A stretch of DNA of 64,000 bases from a virus (taxonomy: Duplodnaviria > Heunggongvirae > Uroviricota > Caudoviricetes). Of the stretch, positions 1-32,951 are shown in pieces. The DNA lies in the IMG/VR virus record IMGVR_UViG_3300045988_155182; one strand, written 5' to 3'. Both the position numbers and the translations under genes were made by a program. A model generated the notes under the pieces. That model saw only the letters and a list, made by a program, of their open reading frames with translations. It did no database searches and had not been told where the DNA came from. The number at the start of each line of letters is the position of its first letter. Positions within the stretch are counted from its first letter, which is position 1.

Positions 1-87
1 AGTGACTCTTCGCCGCAATCAAAACCGTTTAGATCATAATCTTTCTCTCCAGAGAAAATCTCTATCGTTGTATTGCTCACGAGTAAA

Positions 88-357
88 CTACTCCATGCTT
101 TTCAGACGATCAGCAGCTCGTTTCAGCTTGTCGTTCGGTGCCGGAGGATTGCTTATAGCGTCCATAACCAGATTCCAGGATTCTTCATTCAGAACTAGTC
201 TACGGTGTTGCTCTATAACTTTCACGGCACGTTCAGATGCACTGCTAACCATAAACTGAGTAATGCTCTGGTTAGACATTGCGGCAGCTTCCTCGATGAT
301 GCTTTTATCGTCATCGGTTAATCTCAAATCGATGCGCTGCTTTTTTAGTGCTGACAT
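88..357 (-). CDS. RHH antitoxin of the DUF1778/TacA type; the cognate GNAT toxin would lie downstream, off the left edge
   Basis: Protein MSALKKQRIDLRLTDDDKSIIEEAAAMSNQSITQF... fits the TacA-like antitoxin pattern; ATG at 355-357 preceded by a GGAGGA RBS; the ORF-track start at 396 is an upstream extension. Confidence 0.6.
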   Translation of the reverse strand: MSALKKQRIDLRLTDDDKSIIEEAAAMSNQSITQFMVSSASERAVKVIEQHRRLVLNEESWNLVMDAISNPPAPNDKLKRAADRLKSME

Positions 358-675
358 GTATTCCTCCTGATGGCCGTGATGTAGGAAGGCCATCAATCTC
401 CTCTGTTCAAACTGAGTTTTCGACTCAAAAATTACTTTAAAAGGCTATAGCCCATTACGTGTGCATTATCAAATTGTGTACGGCATAACACCGTACTTGT
501 AATATAGAGGTCATTGTTACTTTTTTCAACAGACAAATACAAGCTATGATTGCCAATTGTTAATCACAACCTACCATTTAACCTTTACACCGCAGCCGTA
601 GGCATTTAGGCTATATCACATATAAGAAAACAAGTTGTTTCAGACGATAATTATATACGCAAAGGGAACTCTCCA

Positions 676-1344
676 ATGACCAAGATCTTTGTGGTTGGCG
701 GCACAAAGGGCGGGCCTGGCAAATCCACCGTTGCCCAGCAAATTGCCGTTTGCCTGAAAGTCAAAAAGAAGAAGAAGGTTTATATTACCGATATAGATAT
801 TCAGCGCACGACAACGAGCTGGTGTGAAGACCGTCGACAGAACGAAGACCTTGAGCTGATTCCTTTTGCATACGTTCAGGATGACATCATTAAGCACCTA
901 AAATCGCTTCAGGGTAGAGCTGAGTTTGTAGTGGTAGATGCTGGTGGCTTCGACTCCGAAATTCAGCGACAAGCGATGCTGATGGCCGACGTTATCATTA
1001 TCCCGCTTCGTCCTAAGCGTCGTGATTTGAAATCTCTGCGTGATATCGATCCTATTATCGACAATGTTCGTAATGTAAACGATAAAGTGAAGGTCCGCGC
1101 GGTCATGAACCAGTGTCCGGCTTTGCCATCACAAGTGTCTCGCATTCTGGCGGCTAAAGAGATTGTTGAGACGTTTGGCATCGAGTCTGCGCCAGTCAAT
1201 CTATATAACCGCAACGTCTATGATGATGCGGAAGAGTCTGGTCGTTCTATCTTTGAAATGACCGGTAGCGAGCGCGACAAAAAGGCGGAAGCCGAGTTTG
1301 AAGAATTTGTAGATTATCTGTTGAGTCTGGAGGAAAAAGAATAA
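676..1344 (+). CDS. parA: ParA/Soj-family partition ATPase (small type Ib)
   Basis: Deviant Walker A KGGPGKST near the N-terminus (VVGGTKGGPGKSTVAQ); 222 aa; followed by a translationally coupled small gene. Confidence 0.85.
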   Translation: MTKIFVVGGTKGGPGKSTVAQQIAVCLKVKKKKKVYITDIDIQRTTTSWCEDRRQNEDLELIPFAYVQDDIIKHLKSLQGRAEFVVVDAGGFDSEIQRQAMLMADVIIIPLRPKRRDLKSLRDIDPIIDNVRNVNDKVKVRAVMNQCPALPSQVSRILAAKEIVETFGIESAPVNLYNRNVYDDAEESGRSIFEMTGSERDKKAEAEFEEFVDYLLSLEEKE

Positions 1345-1703
1345 TGTCCATGAAAATGGGTGACCTAGCAAAGCGCAAAGAGCCTGATGCACCGGCTAAG
1401 AACACAACTCCTTTGCGCCAACCAGTCAGACCACAGGGACGCCCGACTCGTGGCAAAGAGAAAATTAAAAGCCGCACAATGTCACTGGAGGACGAATACT
1501 TCGAACTGCTGGAGATGATGAAGTTCATCCCTCGCTTCGAGAAGTTCACTCGTTCTGACGTGATTCGTGCTGCTATTTTCCATCTTGCGGAGAAGACACC
1601 GCAGGAAATCGAGGACATCGTGAAACTTAACGAGGCGATCACCGCTGCCGATGTCACGATGCGTACCGATGAAATCAAACGCGAGTTGATGAAGAAAGGT
1701 TAA
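1344..1703 (+). CDS. Small ParG-like RHH DNA-binding partner of ParA (putative centromere-binding protein)
   Basis: Start overlaps the parA stop (TAATG); basic disordered N-terminus and an RHH-like C-terminal segment (FTRSDVIRAAIFHLAEK). Confidence 0.45.
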   Translation: MSMKMGDLAKRKEPDAPAKNTTPLRQPVRPQGRPTRGKEKIKSRTMSLEDEYFELLEMMKFIPRFEKFTRSDVIRAAIFHLAEKTPQEIEDIVKLNEAITAADVTMRTDEIKRELMKKG

Positions 1704-1710
1704 TTTTATT

Positions 1711-1735
1711 GAGGTGCTGCTTGGCACCTCTTTCT
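1711..1735 (+). terminator. Hairpin terminator after the par operon
   Basis: gaggtgctgc/ttggcacctc inverted repeat followed by tttct. Confidence 0.45.
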
Positions 1736-1747
1736 ATAGGTTCCCTA

Positions 1748-2467
1748 ATGCTCTACAAATATATTGGAAGTGAAGATTCGCAAAAAGTGTTACGTAACCT
1801 CAAACGGTTTGTAGAGGACGGCACTATCTCTGCTAGCGCACCTTCTTCATTCAACGACCCATCAGAGTTCAAAGTTTCGATAACGATGGGAGGTACAGAA
1901 GTGGAGCGCCGGAAACACTTTGAAGACAATGGATGTAAGGATTTTTCCTTTGAAGACTGGGATGCTGTAGCTCCTGAAGCTGCAAAATCGTTGGCTGTGG
2001 ATTTGCGGAAAGAATCATTAGGGGCTTTTGGTGTGGTGTGCTTGTCACCAAACGAAGATAACATCTTGATGTGGTCACATTACTCAGTGTCGCATAAAGG
2101 TTTCTGCATAGGCTTTGATGATGATTTTGTTACCTCTATTGAGGGGTATCACAGCTTTGATAATGTGAAATATATACCTTCTGTTCCCGTGTTCGATGAA
2201 GTTACAGATGAGTTTAAGGTACTTTTTGATAAGCTCTTTTTCTACAAGCACGAATGCTGGAAATATGAGGAAGAACAAAGGGTTATTACTAAAAAAATAG
2301 GCGCTCAGGCATTTGATAAGAAATATATTAGAGAGATCATTCTTGGACATAACGTTTCTCCTGAAGTAGAAGAATATGCCCGGACACAGCTAGACACGAG
2401 CATCGAGGTTTACAAAATGAGTACACCTGATGATGGTTATCTTCTTGTCAAAGAAAAGCTGAAGTAG
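1748..2467 (+). CDS. Hypothetical protein, possibly DUF2971-like; AT-rich cargo
   Basis: ATG at 1748 lies after the terminator hairpin (track start 1709 is TTG inside the hairpin); motif LMWSHYSVSHKGFCIGF recalls the DUF2971 signature; visibly lower GC than neighbours. Confidence 0.4.
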   Translation: MLYKYIGSEDSQKVLRNLKRFVEDGTISASAPSSFNDPSEFKVSITMGGTEVERRKHFEDNGCKDFSFEDWDAVAPEAAKSLAVDLRKESLGAFGVVCLSPNEDNILMWSHYSVSHKGFCIGFDDDFVTSIEGYHSFDNVKYIPSVPVFDEVTDEFKVLFDKLFFYKHECWKYEEEQRVITKKIGAQAFDKKYIREIILGHNVSPEVEEYARTQLDTSIEVYKMSTPDDGYLLVKEKLK

Positions 2468-2533
2468 CTCCAGACTTTCCTCAAATGATTATGTTGGGCG
2501 CTTTTCTTATTGAACTGGTTAGTGAGGCTAATA

Positions 2534-3706
2534 ATGGATTTGTTCTCAACCAAAATAGCAAAAAACAAGCTGCACGAATCTTTTAAACAGATTTATCAAG
2601 ATAATACATATGCTCCAGTAAGAGAAGTGATACAGTCGTGGGGGCGTGGGTTACTGGAGCGTAGCGGTGAGCAGACTAAATTCGTTAAAGAGTTTCAGAC
2701 AACCTTCAATTCCGCCTTATGGGAATTGTATCTGAACGAAATGTTTATTCGTCTCGATTATTCTGTCGACTACACAAAAGACAGTCCCGATTTCTGTGTT
2801 ACTACACCGTCAGGCTACCAGTTTAACGTCGAAGCTGTGATATCAGATCGGCCACATAATCCACCTGCAGGTGTTCTTTTTAGCGAATCAAAATTCAAAC
2901 ATCAATCAACGCTAAAATTAATCGGAAAAATCAAAGACAAACATGATCTTTTTACAGGAGTTAATGGCAAAAAATTCCCGTACTCTACGATGTCTCATGT
3001 AGTTAATAAGCCGTTTGTTCTGGCGCTTGCACCCTTTGACTCCGATTTATCATTGTCTCAAAATAACACAATCATCAATCGAGTGTTGTTTGGCATTGAG
3101 GAACCTACCACCAGAAATTTGGTGACTGGCAGCCAAACTAAAGTTACCTCAATCAAAAAGAATGAAGACGTTGAAATTCCATTAGGTATATTTACTAACG
3201 ACTCATATAAAGAAATAAGTGCGGTTATTTTCTCCACCACCGGCACTTTTGGAAAAGCCGTGGTTCAAAGCGGTATCGGTAGATATGTAAGGTCAACACG
3301 ATATCGAGCCATTGATGTGAATGATTTTATCGCCAATGAAGGGATGAAAAACGAGGGAAAGCACACACAAAGGATAGGACCTGATCATTTCATCACTACA
3401 TATCGGCATTTTTTAAATAACGAAGTCACTGGTGCGGATATTGTAGTTTGTCATTCCACTGCTCATGAAGAGACGCACTTTGACGGCCTTCATATTTACT
3501 ACAATCCTTTTGCGACAGTGCCACTGGACAGAAATATTTTCTTCCCCCCAGAGATAACTCATAATTTTTACGATATGGAAAAAGAACAGTCTGTTCAGAA
3601 TCATCCTGATGGAGCGCTGGTATCTAGACAGGTTTTTGAACCAACTAGAGCACATTTTAGGTATATCATGAAACATTGGTTTCCAGGCTTTCTAAAAGAT
3701 GTTTAA
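2534..3706 (+). CDS. Hypothetical protein, AT-rich cargo, no recognised domain
   Basis: ORF track 2510..3706 begins with TTG; ATG at 2534 is preceded by GAGG; 390 aa; same strand and close spacing to the upstream gene. Confidence 0.4.
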   Translation: MDLFSTKIAKNKLHESFKQIYQDNTYAPVREVIQSWGRGLLERSGEQTKFVKEFQTTFNSALWELYLNEMFIRLDYSVDYTKDSPDFCVTTPSGYQFNVEAVISDRPHNPPAGVLFSESKFKHQSTLKLIGKIKDKHDLFTGVNGKKFPYSTMSHVVNKPFVLALAPFDSDLSLSQNNTIINRVLFGIEEPTTRNLVTGSQTKVTSIKKNEDVEIPLGIFTNDSYKEISAVIFSTTGTFGKAVVQSGIGRYVRSTRYRAIDVNDFIANEGMKNEGKHTQRIGPDHFITTYRHFLNNEVTGADIVVCHSTAHEETHFDGLHIYYNPFATVPLDRNIFFPPEITHNFYDMEKEQSVQNHPDGALVSRQVFEPTRAHFRYIMKHWFPGFLKDV

Positions 3707-3729
3707 GCATCCTGCTGGTTGAATTTGGA

Positions 3730-3791
3730 ACCTGCTTCTGTATATAAATACTAAGTTACTTATTATTATTTATACGGAAGCAGGTCTTTTT
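3730..3791 (+). repeat. Conserved long hairpin element, copy 1 (also acts as a terminator after 2534..3706)
   Basis: cctgcttctgtatataaata ... tatacggaagcagg followed by tcttttt; near-identical arms recur at 49346..49408. Confidence 0.6.
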
Positions 3792-3903
3792 CTATGCCAA
3801 CTTCCCAGACACATTCCCTTCCGTTTCCACTTCCAAAAACTGCCACCAGTCGCTATCATCCGCTCATTGCAATAAGTAAGTAACTACCTATCTGGTGAGC
3901 CAC

Positions 3904-4644
3904 ATGAGCCAAATCTTTTTTGATACCATTGACAACGACCAGTACGACTTCATGACAGAGTGGAATACCGCTGTTATGGACAAGTGGGTCGCTGAAAACA
4001 TTGGTTTGTCGCGCTGCAAAGACGAGGCTGAACTCTTCGAGACGAAGTGGTTTGATTACCGCGATATGCATCCTCTCATGGCCACCTGTCTGTTTACGGA
4101 GGCGTACAAACGTCAGTACTCAAATATCATGCTGACGCACGGTCGCGAACACTTTGAAACAGCTCCGTTCACCACCGGGTTAAAACGCCTGCCTTATCAG
4201 GAGTTGTCGACTGCCAATAAAACGTCGCTATGGAAAGCACGCCAGTTTGCTGATCGCTATTGCTGTTCATACGACTACTTTATCTCCACGGTTCTTTCCG
4301 CAGCTGCACGGCGTCTGTGGGACAAGTTGCCGCGCCCACAGCATTTATGGCAGCCAGAACTGATTGAGATATTCGAAGAGAAATTATCCAGACGCGCAAC
4401 AACCCGTCTGGATGACTCTCTGGTTAGCTTTAAGCATATGGGAGACATGCAGTTCAACCCGATTCAGGAAAGCTATTTTGAGTGGATTCTGGAGCGTTTG
4501 CGCACCATCCCTCGCAGCAAGCGCATACGCGCAATTTTCTCCGCTATCTGGCTAATGGAAATCGTTCCAGAGCGCCTTATTTCCGCCCACTTTCCAGAAG
4601 AACTGGAAGAAGCACGGCGGTTTATTGATCCCCTATCTAATTAA
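3904..4644 (+). CDS. Hypothetical protein upstream of the helicase (helicase-loader role is only a guess)
   Basis: Track ORF starts with GTG at 3895; ATG at 3904; 246 aa; no recognisable motif. Confidence 0.4.
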   Translation: MSQIFFDTIDNDQYDFMTEWNTAVMDKWVAENIGLSRCKDEAELFETKWFDYRDMHPLMATCLFTEAYKRQYSNIMLTHGREHFETAPFTTGLKRLPYQELSTANKTSLWKARQFADRYCCSYDYFISTVLSAAARRLWDKLPRPQHLWQPELIEIFEEKLSRRATTRLDDSLVSFKHMGDMQFNPIQESYFEWILERLRTIPRSKRIRAIFSAIWLMEIVPERLISAHFPEELEEARRFIDPLSN

Positions 4645-4687
4645 CTAATACTAGAAAACAATTTGTTTAAAAAACAAAGGAAAGCAC

Positions 4688-6028
4688 ATGACCGAACTTT
4701 GCCATACAGGACGCGGGCTGTCCGAAGAGTTTGATGAAGATTTTCAGAACAGATTGACGGCCTATTTTTGTCGTGATCACGAGTTTCTTACTCGTGCTGG
4801 AGATCTGGTTGTACCTAGCCAATTTGCCAATGCGGCCAATGCCATATTGGTTAATATGGTTTCGGGCTATTACCGTATGTACAAGAGCGCGCCCTCTTCA
4901 TCTGCGATTCTGGATATGCTTAAGCGTGCGAAACGCGATAAGACTATCCGTGAGGAACTATTCGCCGATGTTGTTGCTGCGTTTAAGCGCATCCTTGCAG
5001 AAAAATTGTCTGATACCTCGTACATGGTTGACCAGGTATCAACCTTCGCAAAAAGCGTAGCGTTTGATGATGCTCTGATTAAGGCTGCTGAACTGAAAGA
5101 GAAGGGCGACTTTCAGGGGGCGATGGCAATCATGGCCAAGGTTCAGCAGATTGGATCGAACGAAGCGACCGGAATCTATGACTACTACACCTCCGCAAGT
5201 GAGCGATTGAAAGCGCGTGAATATGAGGCTTCAGAGGAGTATGTGCCAAACAGCATTACAACTGGACTCCCTCTGCTCGATAGGTTGCTGTACCAAAAAG
5301 GCTGGGCGAAGCGTGAAATGGTGCTCTTCATGGGGTTCGCTAAATCCGGTAAATCGACCGCAATGGGTGAGTTTTCCATAAACGCAACGCTTGCTGGCTA
5401 CAATGTTCTGTATCTCTCGCTGGAGGTTCACACCAACATTTTGTCCGACCGCTTTGATGCAAGATTGTCGGAGACGGAAATGTCCAAGCTGGTGGAACGG
5501 CGCGATGAAGTTCATCGTAAGTTGGCAGAGTTGGGAGCCACTAAGGGGATTGGTAGTTTGTGGGTTGTTGAGCGTCCGTCAGGAAGTATGTCACCTGCAG
5601 ATCTGGACCGTATGCTTAACAGTATGAAAGCCAATGGCATGGTGCCTGACATGGTTGTTGTCGACTACGCAGATTTGATGCGTGCCAGTTATGACCTTCG
5701 TGATGATCGCGCCAATATTCGTAGTATCTACACCGATTTACGTGCTCTTTATGACAAGCATAACGTTGCTGGGATCACGGCATCGCAGACAAACCGTGAA
5801 GGTGGCGCGTCAGAAGTTGCCACAATGATGCACGCCGCCGATAACATCGAAAAAGTACGTATTGCTGACCTGGTAATAACGATCAACAAAACCGAAGAAG
5901 AAGAAGCGAAAGGAGAGGCTCGTCTCTACTTTGCTGGTTCACGTAACCAGCAGGGTGGGATCAGCATTCGCGTTAAACAAAACCTCGAACAAATGCGTTT
6001 CATTGAGCGAATCTTAGACGTTACCTAA
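4688..6028 (+). CDS. Replicative DNA helicase, DnaB/gp41 family
   Basis: Walker A GFAKSGKST, RecA-fold C-terminal domain with VVVDYADLM; conserved AGGAAAGCACATG start context. Confidence 0.8.
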   Translation: MTELCHTGRGLSEEFDEDFQNRLTAYFCRDHEFLTRAGDLVVPSQFANAANAILVNMVSGYYRMYKSAPSSSAILDMLKRAKRDKTIREELFADVVAAFKRILAEKLSDTSYMVDQVSTFAKSVAFDDALIKAAELKEKGDFQGAMAIMAKVQQIGSNEATGIYDYYTSASERLKAREYEASEEYVPNSITTGLPLLDRLLYQKGWAKREMVLFMGFAKSGKSTAMGEFSINATLAGYNVLYLSLEVHTNILSDRFDARLSETEMSKLVERRDEVHRKLAELGATKGIGSLWVVERPSGSMSPADLDRMLNSMKANGMVPDMVVVDYADLMRASYDLRDDRANIRSIYTDLRALYDKHNVAGITASQTNREGGASEVATMMHAADNIEKVRIADLVITINKTEEEEAKGEARLYFAGSRNQQGGISIRVKQNLEQMRFIERILDVT

Positions 6029-6034
6029 AAAATA

Positions 6035-6058
6035 AGCGTGGAGAACACCTCCACGCTT
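6035..6058 (+). terminator. Hairpin after the helicase gene (weak T-tract)
   Basis: agcgtggag aacacc tccacgct. Confidence 0.35.
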
Positions 6059-6109
6059 GATTCATTTGTGAAACAACTTTTCTTTTGCCAAACCACAAAA
6101 GAAAAACAC

Positions 6110-7288
6110 ATGAGCCTTTATGTTATATCAACATTTAGGTTGGTCACAATATTGCCTGTTAAAAGTGGAATTATCGTGAGCGAGCTGAAAGAGCTAATTG
6201 CCGAATTAGATTTTGAACAATGGTTGGATACTGAAGGTATCGTTTATCGACGTGGAGGCGTGAGTGCTCGCGGTCGTGAAGTGAATATCAAGGAATGTCC
6301 GGTATGCGGCAGCTCCAACTGGAAGGTATATTTCAATCTGACCAGTGGCGTCGGCAAATGCTTTGCTGGTGATCATCCCGAAGAGATTCAGTTCAATAAG
6401 CTGGTCTTCCTCAAGCACTACAGCGGCAAATCACGACGACAGTTCGAGGAATATGTGCAGAACGCCCTTCTTTCCCAGGGGTGGGCACCAAAGAAAGAAG
6501 AGATAGTGCTTGCAAGCACAGTCGAGTTAGAGGGACCACTTGCACTCCCTCGTCATTACGAACTTCCTATAGATGGCCGTCTTCCAGACTATCTGGTTGA
6601 ACGAAACATATCGCCTGAAATGGCAAAGTATTTTGACCTACGATACTGCGTCGAAGGTAAGCACGCTTATGTAGATCCGTATACAGATCAGGTTAAAGGA
6701 CAGATATTCGATATGCGAATACTGATACCGGTTTACGATCTGGATGGGGTAATGAAGACATTTCAGGGACGAGACATTACCGGTACAGCAGAACGCCGCT
6801 ACCTCTTTCCTATGCAGCTTCCAGCTTCAGGTAAATTTCTCTACAACGGCCATAATGCAGTCGGCAAACAGACTGTAGTTGTCTGTGAGGGTGCGTTCGA
6901 TGTTATGGGGGTCAAACGAGCTATTTTCGACGAAGAAACATTACGTGATTACGTGGAGCCAATAGGAACGTTCGGGATGCATCTATCTGGCAACACCACT
7001 CAGGATGCAGAAGATCAGTTGGGCGCGTTCCTGACGCTCAAAGCGCGTGGATTACGTAATGTGATCATGATGTGGGATAGTGAAAAGCAAGCTATACGTA
7101 ATACGATGGCCGCAGCCAGGCGACTGACCAGTATTGGTCTTAATGTCAAAGTGGCGTGTTTGGGCGAGGAAGGACTCGACCCGGGCGATGCAACGCCAGA
7201 GCAAATCATCAAAGCCTATTATCGGGCAAAACCGTATACCAAGCAGTTGGAGTTACAAAGCAAGGTTTTGGGCATTAAGGCTCTATGA
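6110..7288 (+). CDS. DNA primase (zinc-ribbon plus TOPRIM)
   Basis: CPVCGSSNW...CFAGDH zinc-binding motif and a TOPRIM-like VVVCEGAFDVMG; start set at the ATG at 6110 that carries the conserved aaaaacacATG context (track start 6038 is GTG inside the upstream hairpin). Confidence 0.75.
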   Translation: MSLYVISTFRLVTILPVKSGIIVSELKELIAELDFEQWLDTEGIVYRRGGVSARGREVNIKECPVCGSSNWKVYFNLTSGVGKCFAGDHPEEIQFNKLVFLKHYSGKSRRQFEEYVQNALLSQGWAPKKEEIVLASTVELEGPLALPRHYELPIDGRLPDYLVERNISPEMAKYFDLRYCVEGKHAYVDPYTDQVKGQIFDMRILIPVYDLDGVMKTFQGRDITGTAERRYLFPMQLPASGKFLYNGHNAVGKQTVVVCEGAFDVMGVKRAIFDEETLRDYVEPIGTFGMHLSGNTTQDAEDQLGAFLTLKARGLRNVIMMWDSEKQAIRNTMAAARRLTSIGLNVKVACLGEEGLDPGDATPEQIIKAYYRAKPYTKQLELQSKVLGIKAL

Positions 7289-7366
7289 TAACAATCACCT
7301 TTAAAATAAGTAGATGATTACTTATCTTTCTGTGAGAATACTTTCATCTGTTAGCTAGGAGTTGGT

Positions 7367-8143
7367 ATGAAAGACGAAATTCAGAAATTAGCCTGCGACA
7401 TCATTGATAAAACTGGTTTAGAAATCAGCGAGAGCAATCGGCTAGACATCATTGAAAAAGCCGTAAAAACAGCAATGGATCATATCGCCACTCGTTTGGT
7501 CGAGATCCCGCTACCAGGGCTACCTTATCTGAAAGTTGAGTTACACGTATGGGGTGAACCTTCTTGTTCACGGCGTTCTGCATTAGTTGTTTTTATTAGC
7601 AAAGAAAACCCGCTCAGTCTTAAAGTGCAGGTTGGTGCATGGATGGATGGAAAAGTGATCTACACAAATACCGTTTTTTGTCTTTCAAACGACGAAACTA
7701 TTGAAGCGGCCATTCAAGAAGCAGTTCTAGCAATGCGCAGCAGCGGTTTGATGAAGAATAACTACGAAGAGTACTTGCGTTCGATAAGTGGTGAAAAGAC
7801 ATTATCTCTGAAAGCAGATTTCGTTACCCCGAAAAATCTGTTGGAAGTCTTGCTTAATAAAGGGGCTAATGATGCCGTAAATGTAATCAGAGAGAGTGAG
7901 TATGCGTCTCTTTGCGACATGTGCAAAAGCCAGTTGGATCTGGTGCATATCGTTATTGATGCTGGGAAGGCATGTGATGGCGTAATGGCGGAATTTGCTT
8001 GGAAGGTGGTCAGGATTGCTAACGAATTACCGATGATAGAGCAAGAGGCCAAATCATACGCCACCAATCATGTCACAGAGCTTCTTGTCCCCTATCGCTT
8101 AGAAAGCAATCAGCGCAAGATGGTTAGCTGGGGAAGTTGGTAA
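7367..8143 (+). CDS. Hypothetical protein
   Basis: 258 aa ORF with ATG start and GGAG RBS, in the operon orientation; no recognised motif. Confidence 0.4.
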   Translation: MKDEIQKLACDIIDKTGLEISESNRLDIIEKAVKTAMDHIATRLVEIPLPGLPYLKVELHVWGEPSCSRRSALVVFISKENPLSLKVQVGAWMDGKVIYTNTVFCLSNDETIEAAIQEAVLAMRSSGLMKNNYEEYLRSISGEKTLSLKADFVTPKNLLEVLLNKGANDAVNVIRESEYASLCDMCKSQLDLVHIVIDAGKACDGVMAEFAWKVVRIANELPMIEQEAKSYATNHVTELLVPYRLESNQRKMVSWGSW

Positions 8144-12068: not shown

Positions 12069-12977
12069 TTAATGATTGCCTAGATATGATTTTAGTTCTT
12101 CTTTAATGATTAGTGAGTATTCTAAAATATCACTTAGTAAAAATTTTGCTCTGTTAAAATACCCACCAAAAGAACCTAAAATTTCAGATGGTCTTTCTAA
12201 GAGCATCACAATATCATCTTCTTGCACTTTAGTAATGTAACTTCTAACAGCTCTTTCTCCAATAACTCTTTTCTTACCGTTTATTTCAGATTCATCTAAA
12301 ACCTTATTTATAAATTTTTCTGTATCATTGAATCGTCCACTATTGTGTACTATTGTATGTCTTAGTAGTTCAATTAGCTTGATGTTAAAGCGATAGTTTT
12401 TGCCAATCTTGTTGTTTGTTTCTATCTCTTTGAAGCCAGGTATTTTATTTCTGAAAATTTTAGTTATTTTTTTCGATGGGTTACTTTTTGCTTTTAATAA
12501 TCTGTAATAAACTTCCCTTTTCCCAATTTCATCATCTTCAACCTTACCAAAATCACTTGAGGACCATAAATCATTTCGAACACATACAGTATAGACATAT
12601 ATTGCCTCAATATAGTCTTCCAGTAACTCATAGGCTTCAGTAATAACCCACTGATATTGTTTATTTTTCAAAGTATTACACAATCTTATCTTTTCTTCTA
12701 AATCAATGGCGCTGTTACCTATCTCTAATGTTGAACCTGTATATGGGTTTGAACATAAATGGCGAGCTAACGTTGTGCCACACTTAATCTTAATAGTTTC
12801 ATTAATATTAATAATAGTATCTGGATTCTGTGCATACTCCACTTCTTTAAGAAGACGTTTTATATTTTTCTTTGTTGTATCATTTATCTGATTTAAATAG
12901 TCAAAAAGTAAAGATATTTCTTCTCTAAATTCGTTGTATTTATTTTCAATCAAAGAATCAGACAACTTACCAATCAT
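12069..12977 (-). CDS. Hypothetical AT-rich protein; possible HEPN-type Abi-like protein
   Basis: 302 aa; the only sizeable minus-strand gene in this segment; strongly AT-rich codon usage; Rx4H motif (RHTIVH) near the C-terminal third; AT-rich upstream region at 12978-13150. Confidence 0.4.
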   Translation of the reverse strand: MIGKLSDSLIENKYNEFREEISLLFDYLNQINDTTKKNIKRLLKEVEYAQNPDTIININETIKIKCGTTLARHLCSNPYTGSTLEIGNSAIDLEEKIRLCNTLKNKQYQWVITEAYELLEDYIEAIYVYTVCVRNDLWSSSDFGKVEDDEIGKREVYYRLLKAKSNPSKKITKIFRNKIPGFKEIETNNKIGKNYRFNIKLIELLRHTIVHNSGRFNDTEKFINKVLDESEINGKKRVIGERAVRSYITKVQEDDIVMLLERPSEILGSFGGYFNRAKFLLSDILEYSLIIKEELKSYLGNH

Positions 12978-23640: not shown

Positions 23641-24204
23641 TTATGCGCATTTCGCAATATCTTTGCGGCGTTTAATCAGTTTCTCCGCAATTTGCTCTAT
23701 TTCGTTGAAATCTTTCGAGACGCTGTTTCGAAGCGCCAGATTCCATTTACTCAAAGTTCGGGCATTTTGGACAATTTGATCGCCCTCTTTAAGTCGTCCG
23801 TTATTCATGAGCCATTCAGCCACATCAGCCCAATCCCAGAGAGGAGACTGGCCTTTTATGCGTTGTACAGGGCAAGGGAAGTCGCCGCTTCCGCGCTTAC
23901 CGTCTTTGAGCAACGCCACTGCCTGGCGAGACAGGTCTGTCAGTTCCGCGATATCACTTAAGCCCACAAGAGCCGAGTCGACGGATTCAACAATTGCACC
24001 GATACCGGCTGATTCAATATTGTCGACCGCAGATGCGATAGCTGCATCAAGTGATTGTGCTTCGCGGTCAAATTCTACATAGACGGAGTTTCCATATGCG
24101 CAAATTAGCGCATCGTCACAGCCGTTTTGGTACAGCGCGTCTTCCAGTCCTTCCGTCTCATACGATACGCCTGAGAGCGTCAGAGTGAAGTTATAAAGCG
24201 CCAT
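23641..24204 (-). CDS. Hypothetical protein; possible antitoxin partner of the upstream HicA-like gene
   Basis: 187 aa from MALYNFTLTL...; ATG at 24202-24204 preceded by an AGGAAAA RBS; immediately downstream of 24265..24489 on the same strand. Confidence 0.35.
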   Translation of the reverse strand: MALYNFTLTLSGVSYETEGLEDALYQNGCDDALICAYGNSVYVEFDREAQSLDAAIASAVDNIESAGIGAIVESVDSALVGLSDIAELTDLSRQAVALLKDGKRGSGDFPCPVQRIKGQSPLWDWADVAEWLMNNGRLKEGDQIVQNARTLSKWNLALRNSVSKDFNEIEQIAEKLIKRRKDIAKCA

Positions 24205-24264
24205 AGTTTTCCTTTGAAGATAGTTGGACAGTTTCTGCAAAAGGCGGCTAATGCCGCCTTGAAA

Positions 24265-31895: not shown

Positions 31896-32951
31896 CTATT
31901 TGCGAGTCTTTGCCTTGCGCAACTCTTCGAGAAGCGCCAGTTCTTCTTTACTCAACATGACCATTTTGCCTTCTTTTTCGTCAGGCACAACGTCGATAAT
32001 GTCATCTTGATTCTCATCTGGGAGGCTATATTCCGTCTCATCATTATCGATTTTTGTTGATATTTGTGCCTGGCGTAACTTTGGCCGCCTATAGTGGATG
32101 ACGAAGTAGACCGAGTTTCCGCGCTTAACTTCCGTGTAATCGAGATATCCTATCTCTCGCAGCTGTTCCATAGCCTTTCTTACCGTCGCATTCTGAGTAA
32201 TAGTGCGACTTGTCAGATTAAGTCTGGCGCGTAAACGGGCTAGTGATATTGGTGCCGGATCAGGCGGCAAACTTTCAATAAAAGTATAAAGCGCCTGAGC
32301 GGATTCTTTTCTTGAGAGTTCGTTTATAGCCCGGAGTTGCAGAAGAACCTTTTTGTCGAACTGGTAGAGTTCGAAAATCTTGGGATCTGCTTTCAGTTCG
32401 ACCGTATCGTGCTTGACACTATATTTTGCCGTTTGCACAAGATGCGTTACGTAAAACTCATCAGAGCCTTTGCTACGGAACGAGATGGTATTTGTGGCAA
32501 TACGGCTTAGCGAACTGTCCAGGCGTTTGCGTAACTTCGCTGATGACCTGGCGGTCGGAATGCCACACAGCCTTACAAACTCAACGAACGGCAACGTGAC
32601 AGTATCGCCAACGACCTTGTGTTTGGCAAACGCGTGGATTATTCCCACCCACGTTTTAAAGTCGTTATCCATATCAAGCCGAAGGCCAGAGATCCTTATG
32701 TCTTCGTACCCTTCGGCTTTTGCCAGAGACAGCTGTTTGAGTTCAGCAGAGGCATCCATAGAGACCATTTGCCCCTTTCTTCCTCTGGATGTCGATTTCA
32801 GCGTCGGAACGAAGAGGCCCAGACGCATCAAAGCAACAGGCTGAACAGTGTTATTAGTGTTAGGAACCAACGTAACAACTTCGCCTGTCTTTTTATCTGT
32901 TTCTGAAAATGCTTCAACGATCGCTATGTTTTTATTGCCGTTTTCGCTCAT
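31896..32951 (-). CDS. repA: Iteron-binding plasmid replication initiator (RepA, P1/IncFIB-like architecture)
   Basis: 351 aa gene flanked on both sides by arrays of 21-22 bp iterons, with DnaA boxes and GATC clusters upstream of its 5' end; protein reads as RepA-like ([18 protein letters not shown]) from memory. Confidence 0.75.

Follow-up and report, generated by a model that had tools for sequence, protein, structure and literature searches.

An exchangeable slot beside the partition genes of an SSU5-like phage-plasmid holds a probable two-gene anti-phage cassette

What do two adjacent, AT-rich genes contribute to the virus that carries them? The genes lie near the start of a 64,000-nucleotide stretch of DNA (the window) from the Caudoviricetes record IMGVR_UViG_3300045988_155182 in IMG/VR. 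A sequence-only reading had called them anti-phage, exclusion or anti-defence cargo. The anti-phage part of this claim gains support from matches to the PADLOC families PD-T7-5 and PDC-S31, while an anti-defence role is unsupported. We consider it probable that positions 1704-3727 are an anti-phage cassette in which two autonomous effectors are co-mobilised in an exchangeable slot of an SSU5-like phage-plasmid. Both genes are from families already in PADLOC, one of them experimentally validated, and standard tools flag both. The two co-oriented open reading frames (ORFs) correspond to the RefSeq calls WP_061358315.1 (239 aa, gene 1) and WP_053886728.1 (390 aa, gene 2) in plasmid pHXH-2. Coordinates of these and other features are collected in Table 1.

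Gene 2 encodes a full-length homologue of PD-T7-5, a family that was found when E. coli DNA underwent functional selection for T7 resistance and that was labelled a nuclease (PMC9519451). The PADLOC model for this family (PDLC04110) matches residues 9-379 of the protein over profile positions 1-342 of 346 (E = 2e-139, 462.5 bits), which places gene 2 in PD-T7-5 by full-length sequence match. The earlier statement that this protein has no recognisable domain stands as a remark made by eye but does not survive the profile search. Gene 2 is like PD-T7-5 (Vassallo et al., 2022; PADLOC, DefenseFinder) in its length of 390 aa, its nuclease prediction and its location on a mobile element, and DefenseFinder hits to PD-T7-5 in SSU5-group phage-plasmids of E. 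coli have been reported in a 2025 preprint. The clone that was validated contained one ORF (UMB0934, RRM82777.1) with 143 bp of upstream and 119 bp of downstream DNA (PMC9519451), whereas gene 2 is the second gene of a two-gene cassette.

None of 30 close and 37 distant relatives, down to 24% identity, departs from residues E64, P85-D86 and E100 of gene 2. K136 is nearly invariant, and the customary lysine two residues past E100 is missing. The fold appears nuclease-like, and the N-terminal part is predicted to be a PD-(D/E)xK-like nuclease core with the corresponding putative chemistry. The C-terminal half is beta-rich and variable across the superfamily. A profile search of 1.84 billion representative sequences gave 1197 relatives; most of the 150 best-scoring ones listed cover just residues 1-245, approximately, of gene 2, and they differ in length. 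This pattern is in line with a conserved effector module to which a variable C-terminal part is attached, and the latter is presumably the sensing or specificity part. Residues 9-249 also match positions 108-347 of the PD-T7-1 profile (E = 1.9e-42). PD-T7-1, from the same study, has this nuclease-containing N-terminal module of approximately 240 residues in common with gene 2 but is extended at its N-terminus and differs in its C-terminal part, and by full-length match it is a separate family.

Gene 1 had been described as reminiscent of DUF2971, and profile searches agree with this. The Pfam family DUF2971 (PF11185) matches with 30.1 bits against a cut-off of 22 (E = 1.3e-6), and the PADLOC PDC-S31 model (PDLC04990) matches over its full length at residues 2-234 (E = 4.7e-38). 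The Pfam match centres on the MWSHY...HKGFCIGF stretch; ILMWSHYSVSHKGFCIGF corresponds to residues 105-122, with MWSHY at 108-112. Invariant or nearly invariant positions are N36-D37-P38, W109-S110-H111-Y112, H116, G118 and W171-x-Y173-E174-x-E176-x-R178. Among 35 sequences with identities as low as 23%, all keep Y112 and E174, and at least 90% keep E176. The nearest solved folds to a structure model of gene 1 are DarT-type ADP-ribosyltransferases (ARTs), and the model has large helical inserts. The modelled protein combines an ART fold with the conserved Tyr of motif II and the ExE of motif III, and this conservation is in keeping with a published study that places DUF2971 in the H-Y-E clade of ARTs, beside DarT and AbiGi (PMC12522546). 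We infer that gene 1 encodes a predicted NAD+-dependent ADP-ribosyltransferase of the DarT-like H-Y-E kind.

The gene 1 model resembles the DarT fold, but the protein matches no solved DarT in sequence. Profiles of both cargo families found nothing meaningful among all PDB sequences, and no solved structure is related to gene 2 by sequence in this comparison. In DarTG the macrodomain antitoxin DarG adjoins DarT, whereas gene 1 is flanked by parB and PD-T7-5 and has neither a macrodomain gene nor any other antitoxin-like gene next to it; gene 1 is thus not part of a DarTG system. A functional precedent for a defence role is Aristaios from lactococcal plasmids, a validated single-gene abortive infection (Abi) system with a DUF2971 protein that interferes with phage transcription (PMC11381338, PMC13064643). 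Like gene 1, it is a plasmid-borne single DUF2971 protein (the size range being approximately 240-320 aa) with an ART-like fold prediction.

The element that carries the two genes can be identified from its relatives. Over its first 8 kb the window has 100% identity to E. coli plasmid pHXH-2 (NZ_MH257954.1, 111.9 kb). The backbone is 96-97% identical to that of Escherichia phages CMS-2020a and Cyrano and 82% identical to that of Salmonella phage SSU5. Matches were found in 724 plasmid records, mostly non-mobilisable and approximately 105-130 kb in size, from Escherichia, Klebsiella, Enterobacter and Salmonella. By these matches to pHXH-2, phages and plasmid records, the window is part of an SSU5-like phage-plasmid. 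The cargo had been placed between the partition and replication modules of the element. This is correct for the phage-type helicase/primase module but not for the Rep3-type initiator, which is encoded far away (Table 1), so the replication module that adjoins the cargo is a phage-type replisome and not the plasmid initiator. On the other side, pHXH-2 has a GNAT acetyltransferase toxin gene just past the window edge, which forms a TacAT-type toxin-antitoxin pair with the TacA antitoxin gene beside the par genes.

Several results define the cargo as an exchangeable segment. Alignments with relatives that have other cargo break off at the stop codon of parB and resume at approximately 3728. The terminator that had been proposed at 1711-1735 was found in a consensus scan as a hairpin at 1711-1730 followed by TTTCT. 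The GC-rich hairpin just past the parB stop differs between cargo variants (window 1704-1740 and the equivalent positions of loci L003-L006). Because each variant has its own hairpin, the parB terminator is part of the exchangeable segment and not of the backbone. Of the 464 plasmid records that match positions 1704-3894, 11 hold the whole insert and nearly all others match only the last 165 bp or so (3728-3892). These 11 are among the 724 related plasmid records. The insert also occurs in 13 of 5426 complete E. coli genomes, where it is always plasmid-borne and always at least 99.7% identical. The flanks of the slot are conserved and relatives have unrelated inserts in it, as expected for an accessory slot of SSU5-like phage-plasmids.

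The composition of the two genes differs from that of the backbone as had been claimed. GC content is 39.8% in 1748-3706 against a window mean of 45.5% (standard deviation 2.5% for windows of the same size), and only 2.9% of same-size windows are equally low, although the lowest GC content in the window belongs to an ORF at 12069-12977 (29.3%) and not to the cargo. At third codon positions the GC content of genes 1 and 2 is 0.40 and 0.36, compared with 0.46-0.575 in parA, parB, the 249-aa replication-module gene (rep249), dnaB and the primase gene. Together with the sharp breakpoints and with cargo proteins that are only 54% and 76% identical in a backbone with 98-100% identical proteins, these values support a foreign origin. 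We found no direct or inverted repeats, insertion sequence (IS) ends or att-like sites flanking the cargo. Homologous recombination in the conserved flanks is thus the simplest route of exchange and the more likely one.

This position resembles the well-known defence hotspots of mobile elements such as P2 and P4 (see also PMC9519451, Fig. 4) in being fixed, in having sharp borders and in hosting alternative, fast-evolving, AT-rich immunity genes. It differs from them in belonging to SSU5-like phage-plasmids and in running from parB to a conserved hairpin. A literature search, which was not exhaustive, found no description of it; definition of this slot is a by-product of the present analysis.

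The hairpin that closes the slot had been described as a conserved element, and this is borne out. It is the first part of a 165-bp block (3728-3892) upstream of rep249, and the block is kept in approximately 450 plasmid records without the cargo. The fold at 3730-3785 has a predicted energy of -24.2 kcal/mol (z = -5.4), and none of 200 shuffled sequences was as stable. That the hairpin is kept whatever the cargo fits a terminator that insulates the replication module, and we consider it a putative terminator shielding the replication genes. An Rfam scan of positions 1-8000 gave no family for the hairpin or for anything else; the sole match, to RAGATH-12, is sub-threshold at 23 bits, the gathering score being 75. 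An inverted TAAGTAACT-type motif is present in the hairpin loop (3744-3764) and again just 5' of rep249 (3871-3891), with both copies kept in relatives, and it may be a regulator binding site. We found no convincing terminator between genes 1 and 2.

To ask whether the two genes belong together, we compared their occurrence across genomes. DUF2971 homologues (40-52% identity) occur in approximately 268 plasmid records, mostly phage-plasmids, and PD-T7-5 in approximately 14 enterobacterial records. SSU5 and Cyrano have DUF2971 in the same slot without PD-T7-5. Phage-plasmids of Salmonella, Cronobacter and Enterobacter have PD-T7-5 without an intact DUF2971 gene, as does an E. coli P4-like satellite. 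A second allele of the pair is found in an E. coli phage-plasmid (L090-92) in which ParA, ParB, rep249, DnaB and primase are 98-100% identical to those of the window, with DUF2971 at 54% and PD-T7-5 at 76%. That both genes have diverged in a near-identical backbone indicates that the pair was exchanged as a pair. A third allele (L103/L104; 73% and 80% identity) lies beside a CbtA toxin gene in a more diverged SSU5-type backbone. The idea that this locus is an independent, non-phage-plasmid context was dropped, because alignment revealed a parB 3' remnant upstream and the hairpin and the start of rep249 downstream.

Homologues of PD-T7-5 that are at least 73% identical to gene 2 have a same-strand ART-like gene 41-86 bp upstream in most sampled loci. 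In the three SSU5-type alleles this partner is DUF2971. It is AbiGi (228-242 aa, 65-86 bp away, same strand), as detected by the PADLOC AbiGi model, in a lambdoid prophage of Proteus, in two prophage contexts of Yersinia and in a defence island. The PD-T7-5 homologues behind AbiGi are 76-77% identical to gene 2, and the island adjoins ScoMcrA-like genes. These four contexts share approximately 155 bp upstream of AbiGi and the hairpin of the slot downstream, with unrelated flanks beyond, and promoter, AbiGi, PD-T7-5 and hairpin thus move as one unit. The presence of this hairpin 3' of PD-T7-5 homologues in the Proteus prophage, the Yersinia prophages and the defence island means either that these cassettes are derived from phage-plasmids or that the hairpin originally belonged to the PD-T7-5 module. 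Of the intergenic spacer, just the 25 nt or so before the gene 2 ATG are common with AbiGi-type and solo loci.

Three solo PD-T7-5 loci retain pseudogenised 3' ends of DUF2971, with in-frame stops, directly upstream (E = 1e-13, 6e-14 and 4e-5). These remnants indicate that solo PD-T7-5 in this clade is derived from an ancestral pair. By contrast, DUF2971 was within 6 kb of more distant PD-T7-5 homologues in none of 79 diverse genome loci, and the upstream ORFs there were heterogeneous. To judge by the sampled loci, PD-T7-5 in Enterobacterales usually follows an ART-like gene, which is a new point. At one further locus (L098, 1944-2663), in a GmrSD/NOV_C island, a 239-aa protein is encoded 338 bp upstream of a 64%-identical PD-T7-5 homologue. 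In this protein, STS and ENE motifs resembling those of R-S-E ADP-ribosyltransferases can be made out by eye; assignment as an ART has no support from Pfam, PADLOC or the DUF2971 profile, and we keep this protein as a lead only.

AbiGi and DUF2971 have been reported as related ART-like families (PMC12522546), and when the DUF2971 profile was compared with one AbiGi protein, the alignment was confined to the W/F-x-YE-x-E-x-R motif. The cargo is like AbiG of Lactococcus in having two co-oriented genes of similar sizes, and close PD-T7-5 homologues lie directly behind true AbiGi-family genes. However, gene 1 has no AbiGi match and gene 2 no AbiGii match in Pfam or PADLOC, and the cassette is not a member of AbiG.

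These comparisons bear on how the two genes work. Our preferred explanation, which we hold to be somewhat better than even, is that they are stacked autonomous effectors, since this accounts alike for decay of one gene, activity of a single gene and co-mobility of both. Gene 1 decays while gene 2 is kept, single-gene activity has been published and DUF2971 alone is abundant, and for these reasons each protein is likely to be selectable alone. Their co-mobility and the repeated occurrence of an ART-like partner indicate that the combination is favoured. Some observations weigh against this explanation. The case for autonomy is weaker because PD-T7-5 repeatedly has an ART-like gene as its upstream partner and because the pair is co-mobile. 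The evidence for defence by PD-T7-5 is limited to the UMB0934 allele, which is either that of gene 2 itself or a relative with approximately 76% identity. Aristaios is from a Gram-positive host, has 316 aa (77 residues longer than gene 1) and is related to it through shared Pfam family membership. PDC-S31 has the status of a candidate defence family, PADLOC having picked its PDC systems for being embedded in BREX, DISARM or type I restriction-modification (RM) loci. A promoter scan gave five promoter-like sites against 5.2 expected, none above chance, and we assigned no promoters for this reason.

The same pairing data can be read as cooperation. The two genes would then form an AbiG-like two-component system in which the ART-like protein senses, regulates or complements the PD-T7-5 nuclease, and the activity of PD-T7-5 alone in the laboratory would be partial. 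The ART-like gene upstream in most sampled loci, the decayed DUF2971 at three solo loci (which makes the pair ancestral there), the joint replacement of both genes (54%/76%) in a 98-100% identical backbone and the travel of the AbiGi-type pair from promoter to terminator among unrelated elements are all in line with this. AbiG is classed as a two-component system in the literature. The lactococcal AbiGi and AbiGii proteins are similar in size to the 239 and 390 aa of the cargo, which also counts for cooperation. However, a clone of PD-T7-5 by itself, with 143 bp of DNA upstream, was protective in E. coli (PMC9519451), PD-T7-5 stays intact once DUF2971 decays, its distant homologues have no ART-like neighbour, and the slot more commonly holds DUF2971 alone. 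The lack of AbiGi and AbiGii matches speaks against an AbiG-like system as well, and stacked independent defence genes would also be co-mobile. We regard cooperation as less likely than autonomy but as the strongest of the alternatives. In its general form, which we rate as equally tentative, PD-T7-5 of Enterobacterales would natively be the second gene of a mobile operon whose ART-like first gene (DUF2971 or AbiGi) is interchangeable, the two products cooperating, for example, as an ART sensor or co-effector and a nuclease. The tested PD-T7-5 clone may even have come from a locus with a decayed partner; the solo E. coli P4-like locus (L093) has such a remnant. If cooperation is true, it would mean that an AbiG-like class has so far gone unrecognised, since PD-T7-5 was defined from a single-ORF clone.

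Two further explanations concern what is selected. Gene 1 could be a tool of the phage-plasmid, for host take-over, against other plasmids or as an addiction toxin, leaving gene 2 alone as the defence gene. Phage ARTs that modify host proteins are well known (T4 Alt, ModA and ModB) and count for such a role. Approximately 18% of DUF2971 proteins are predicted effectors in pathogens (PMC12522546), and the neighbouring par genes and TacAT-type pair are maintenance functions. We nevertheless think this improbable. The family is listed in PADLOC through its embedding in BREX, DISARM or type I RM loci, the sole tested DUF2971 protein is an Abi defence, and gene 1 has no antitoxin-like partner. Its fast divergence (40-54% identity in near-identical backbones) fits immunity genes, as does a slot that also hosts PD-T7-5, the remaining occupants being diverse and for the most part uncharacterised (a P-loop NTPase-fold protein, for example). 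It is more improbable still, to the point that we give it very little weight, that the insert hitch-hikes as inert cargo and has no selected function here. Its rarity (11 of 724 related plasmid records, 13 of 5426 complete E. coli genomes) counts for this, but neither ORF is disrupted in any of the 13 carrier E. coli genomes, where conservation is at least 99.7%, and the catalytic-type residues are invariant. Exact copies of the proteins are present on hundreds of contigs, and members of the same 90%-identity cluster occur in Salmonella, Citrobacter, Enterobacter and E. coli.

With two stacked autonomous effectors, the cassette could work as follows. The genes would probably be co-transcribed at a low level from the par region in the plasmid state, from a promoter inside the end of gene 1, or from both, and the conserved hairpin would halt transcription before the replication genes. 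Upon infection the gene 1 ART, as suggested by its fold, its motifs and the Aristaios precedent, would modify nucleic acid or the transcription or replication machinery and abort phage development. The gene 2 nuclease would cut phage nucleic acid, with its C-terminal half sensing the infection or giving specificity. In this way the cassette would protect the host from competing phages, to the benefit of the phage-plasmid.

Table 1. Features of the cargo slot, its surroundings and related loci. Positions are those of the window unless a locus is named.
Feature	Position	Strand	Details
TacA/DUF1778 antitoxin gene	88-396	-	E = 8.6e-26
parA	676-1344		
parB-like gene	1344-1703		119 aa; stop codon at 1703
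Terminator-like hairpin	1711-1730, tail to 1735	+	GAGGTGCT/GGCACCTC stem, TTTCT tail; 13 nt 5' of gene 1 start; consensus scan
Gene 1, DUF2971 / PDC-S31	1748-2467	+	239 aa; start MLYKY as in all homologues
Intergenic spacer	2468-2533	+	66 bp; Shine-Dalgarno GAGG at 2524-2527, six bases before gene 2 ATG
Gene 2, PD-T7-5 homologue	2534-3706	+	390 aa
Long hairpin	3730-3791 (fold 3730-3785)	+	Stem of approximately 19 bp and T-run; closes cargo slot
rep249	3895-4644		249-aa replication-module gene; followed by DnaB-like helicase and primase genes
Rep3-type plasmid replication initiator	31896-32951	-	Approximately 28 kb from helicase/primase module
Slot occupants in relatives			568-aa P-loop NTPase; minus-strand 352-aa protein; IS elements; PD-T7-5 alone
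Slot occupants in phages			DUF2971 alone (Cyrano); two hypotheticals and DUF2971 (SSU5)
AbiGi and PD-T7-5 cassette	L086 5032-7254, L087 5094-7260, L106 2094-4249		Approximately 2.2 kb; Proteus lambdoid prophage, Yersinia prophages, defence island
DUF2971 remnants	L094 3796-4000, L105 2799-3000, L093 approximately 5860-5990		Cronobacter/Enterobacter phage-plasmids; L093 is an E. coli P4-like satellite

A second variable position lies behind the primase gene, at approximately 7290-7366. In pUTAK-6-1 (compare L002, 7782-9574) and several other relatives this position holds genes for a minus-strand tetratricopeptide repeat (TPR) protein and a hypothetical protein, neither of which is in the window. 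The AT-rich ORF at 12069-12977 (minus strand, 302 aa) has a full-length match to phrog_35492, of unknown function, and no Pfam or PADLOC match; it is probably another foreign cargo gene. A 199-aa protein encoded at 23641-24240 on the minus strand matches the PADLOC candidate PDC-M06B (E = 1.6e-32). We dropped a defence reading of this gene, because the excisionase/transcriptional-regulator family phrog_2620 fits it better (E = 3e-105).

Together, these data identify the cargo as two catalogued defence families, and the practical value of this is modest. They provide a natural E. coli context for the candidate family PDC-S31/DUF2971 beside a validated partner, and they raise the question of whether PD-T7-5 truly is a system of one gene or what survives of a pair of ART and nuclease. 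For the biology of these elements, the results indicate that phage-plasmids of this clinically widespread group reserve an exchangeable place for immunity genes beside their partition genes.

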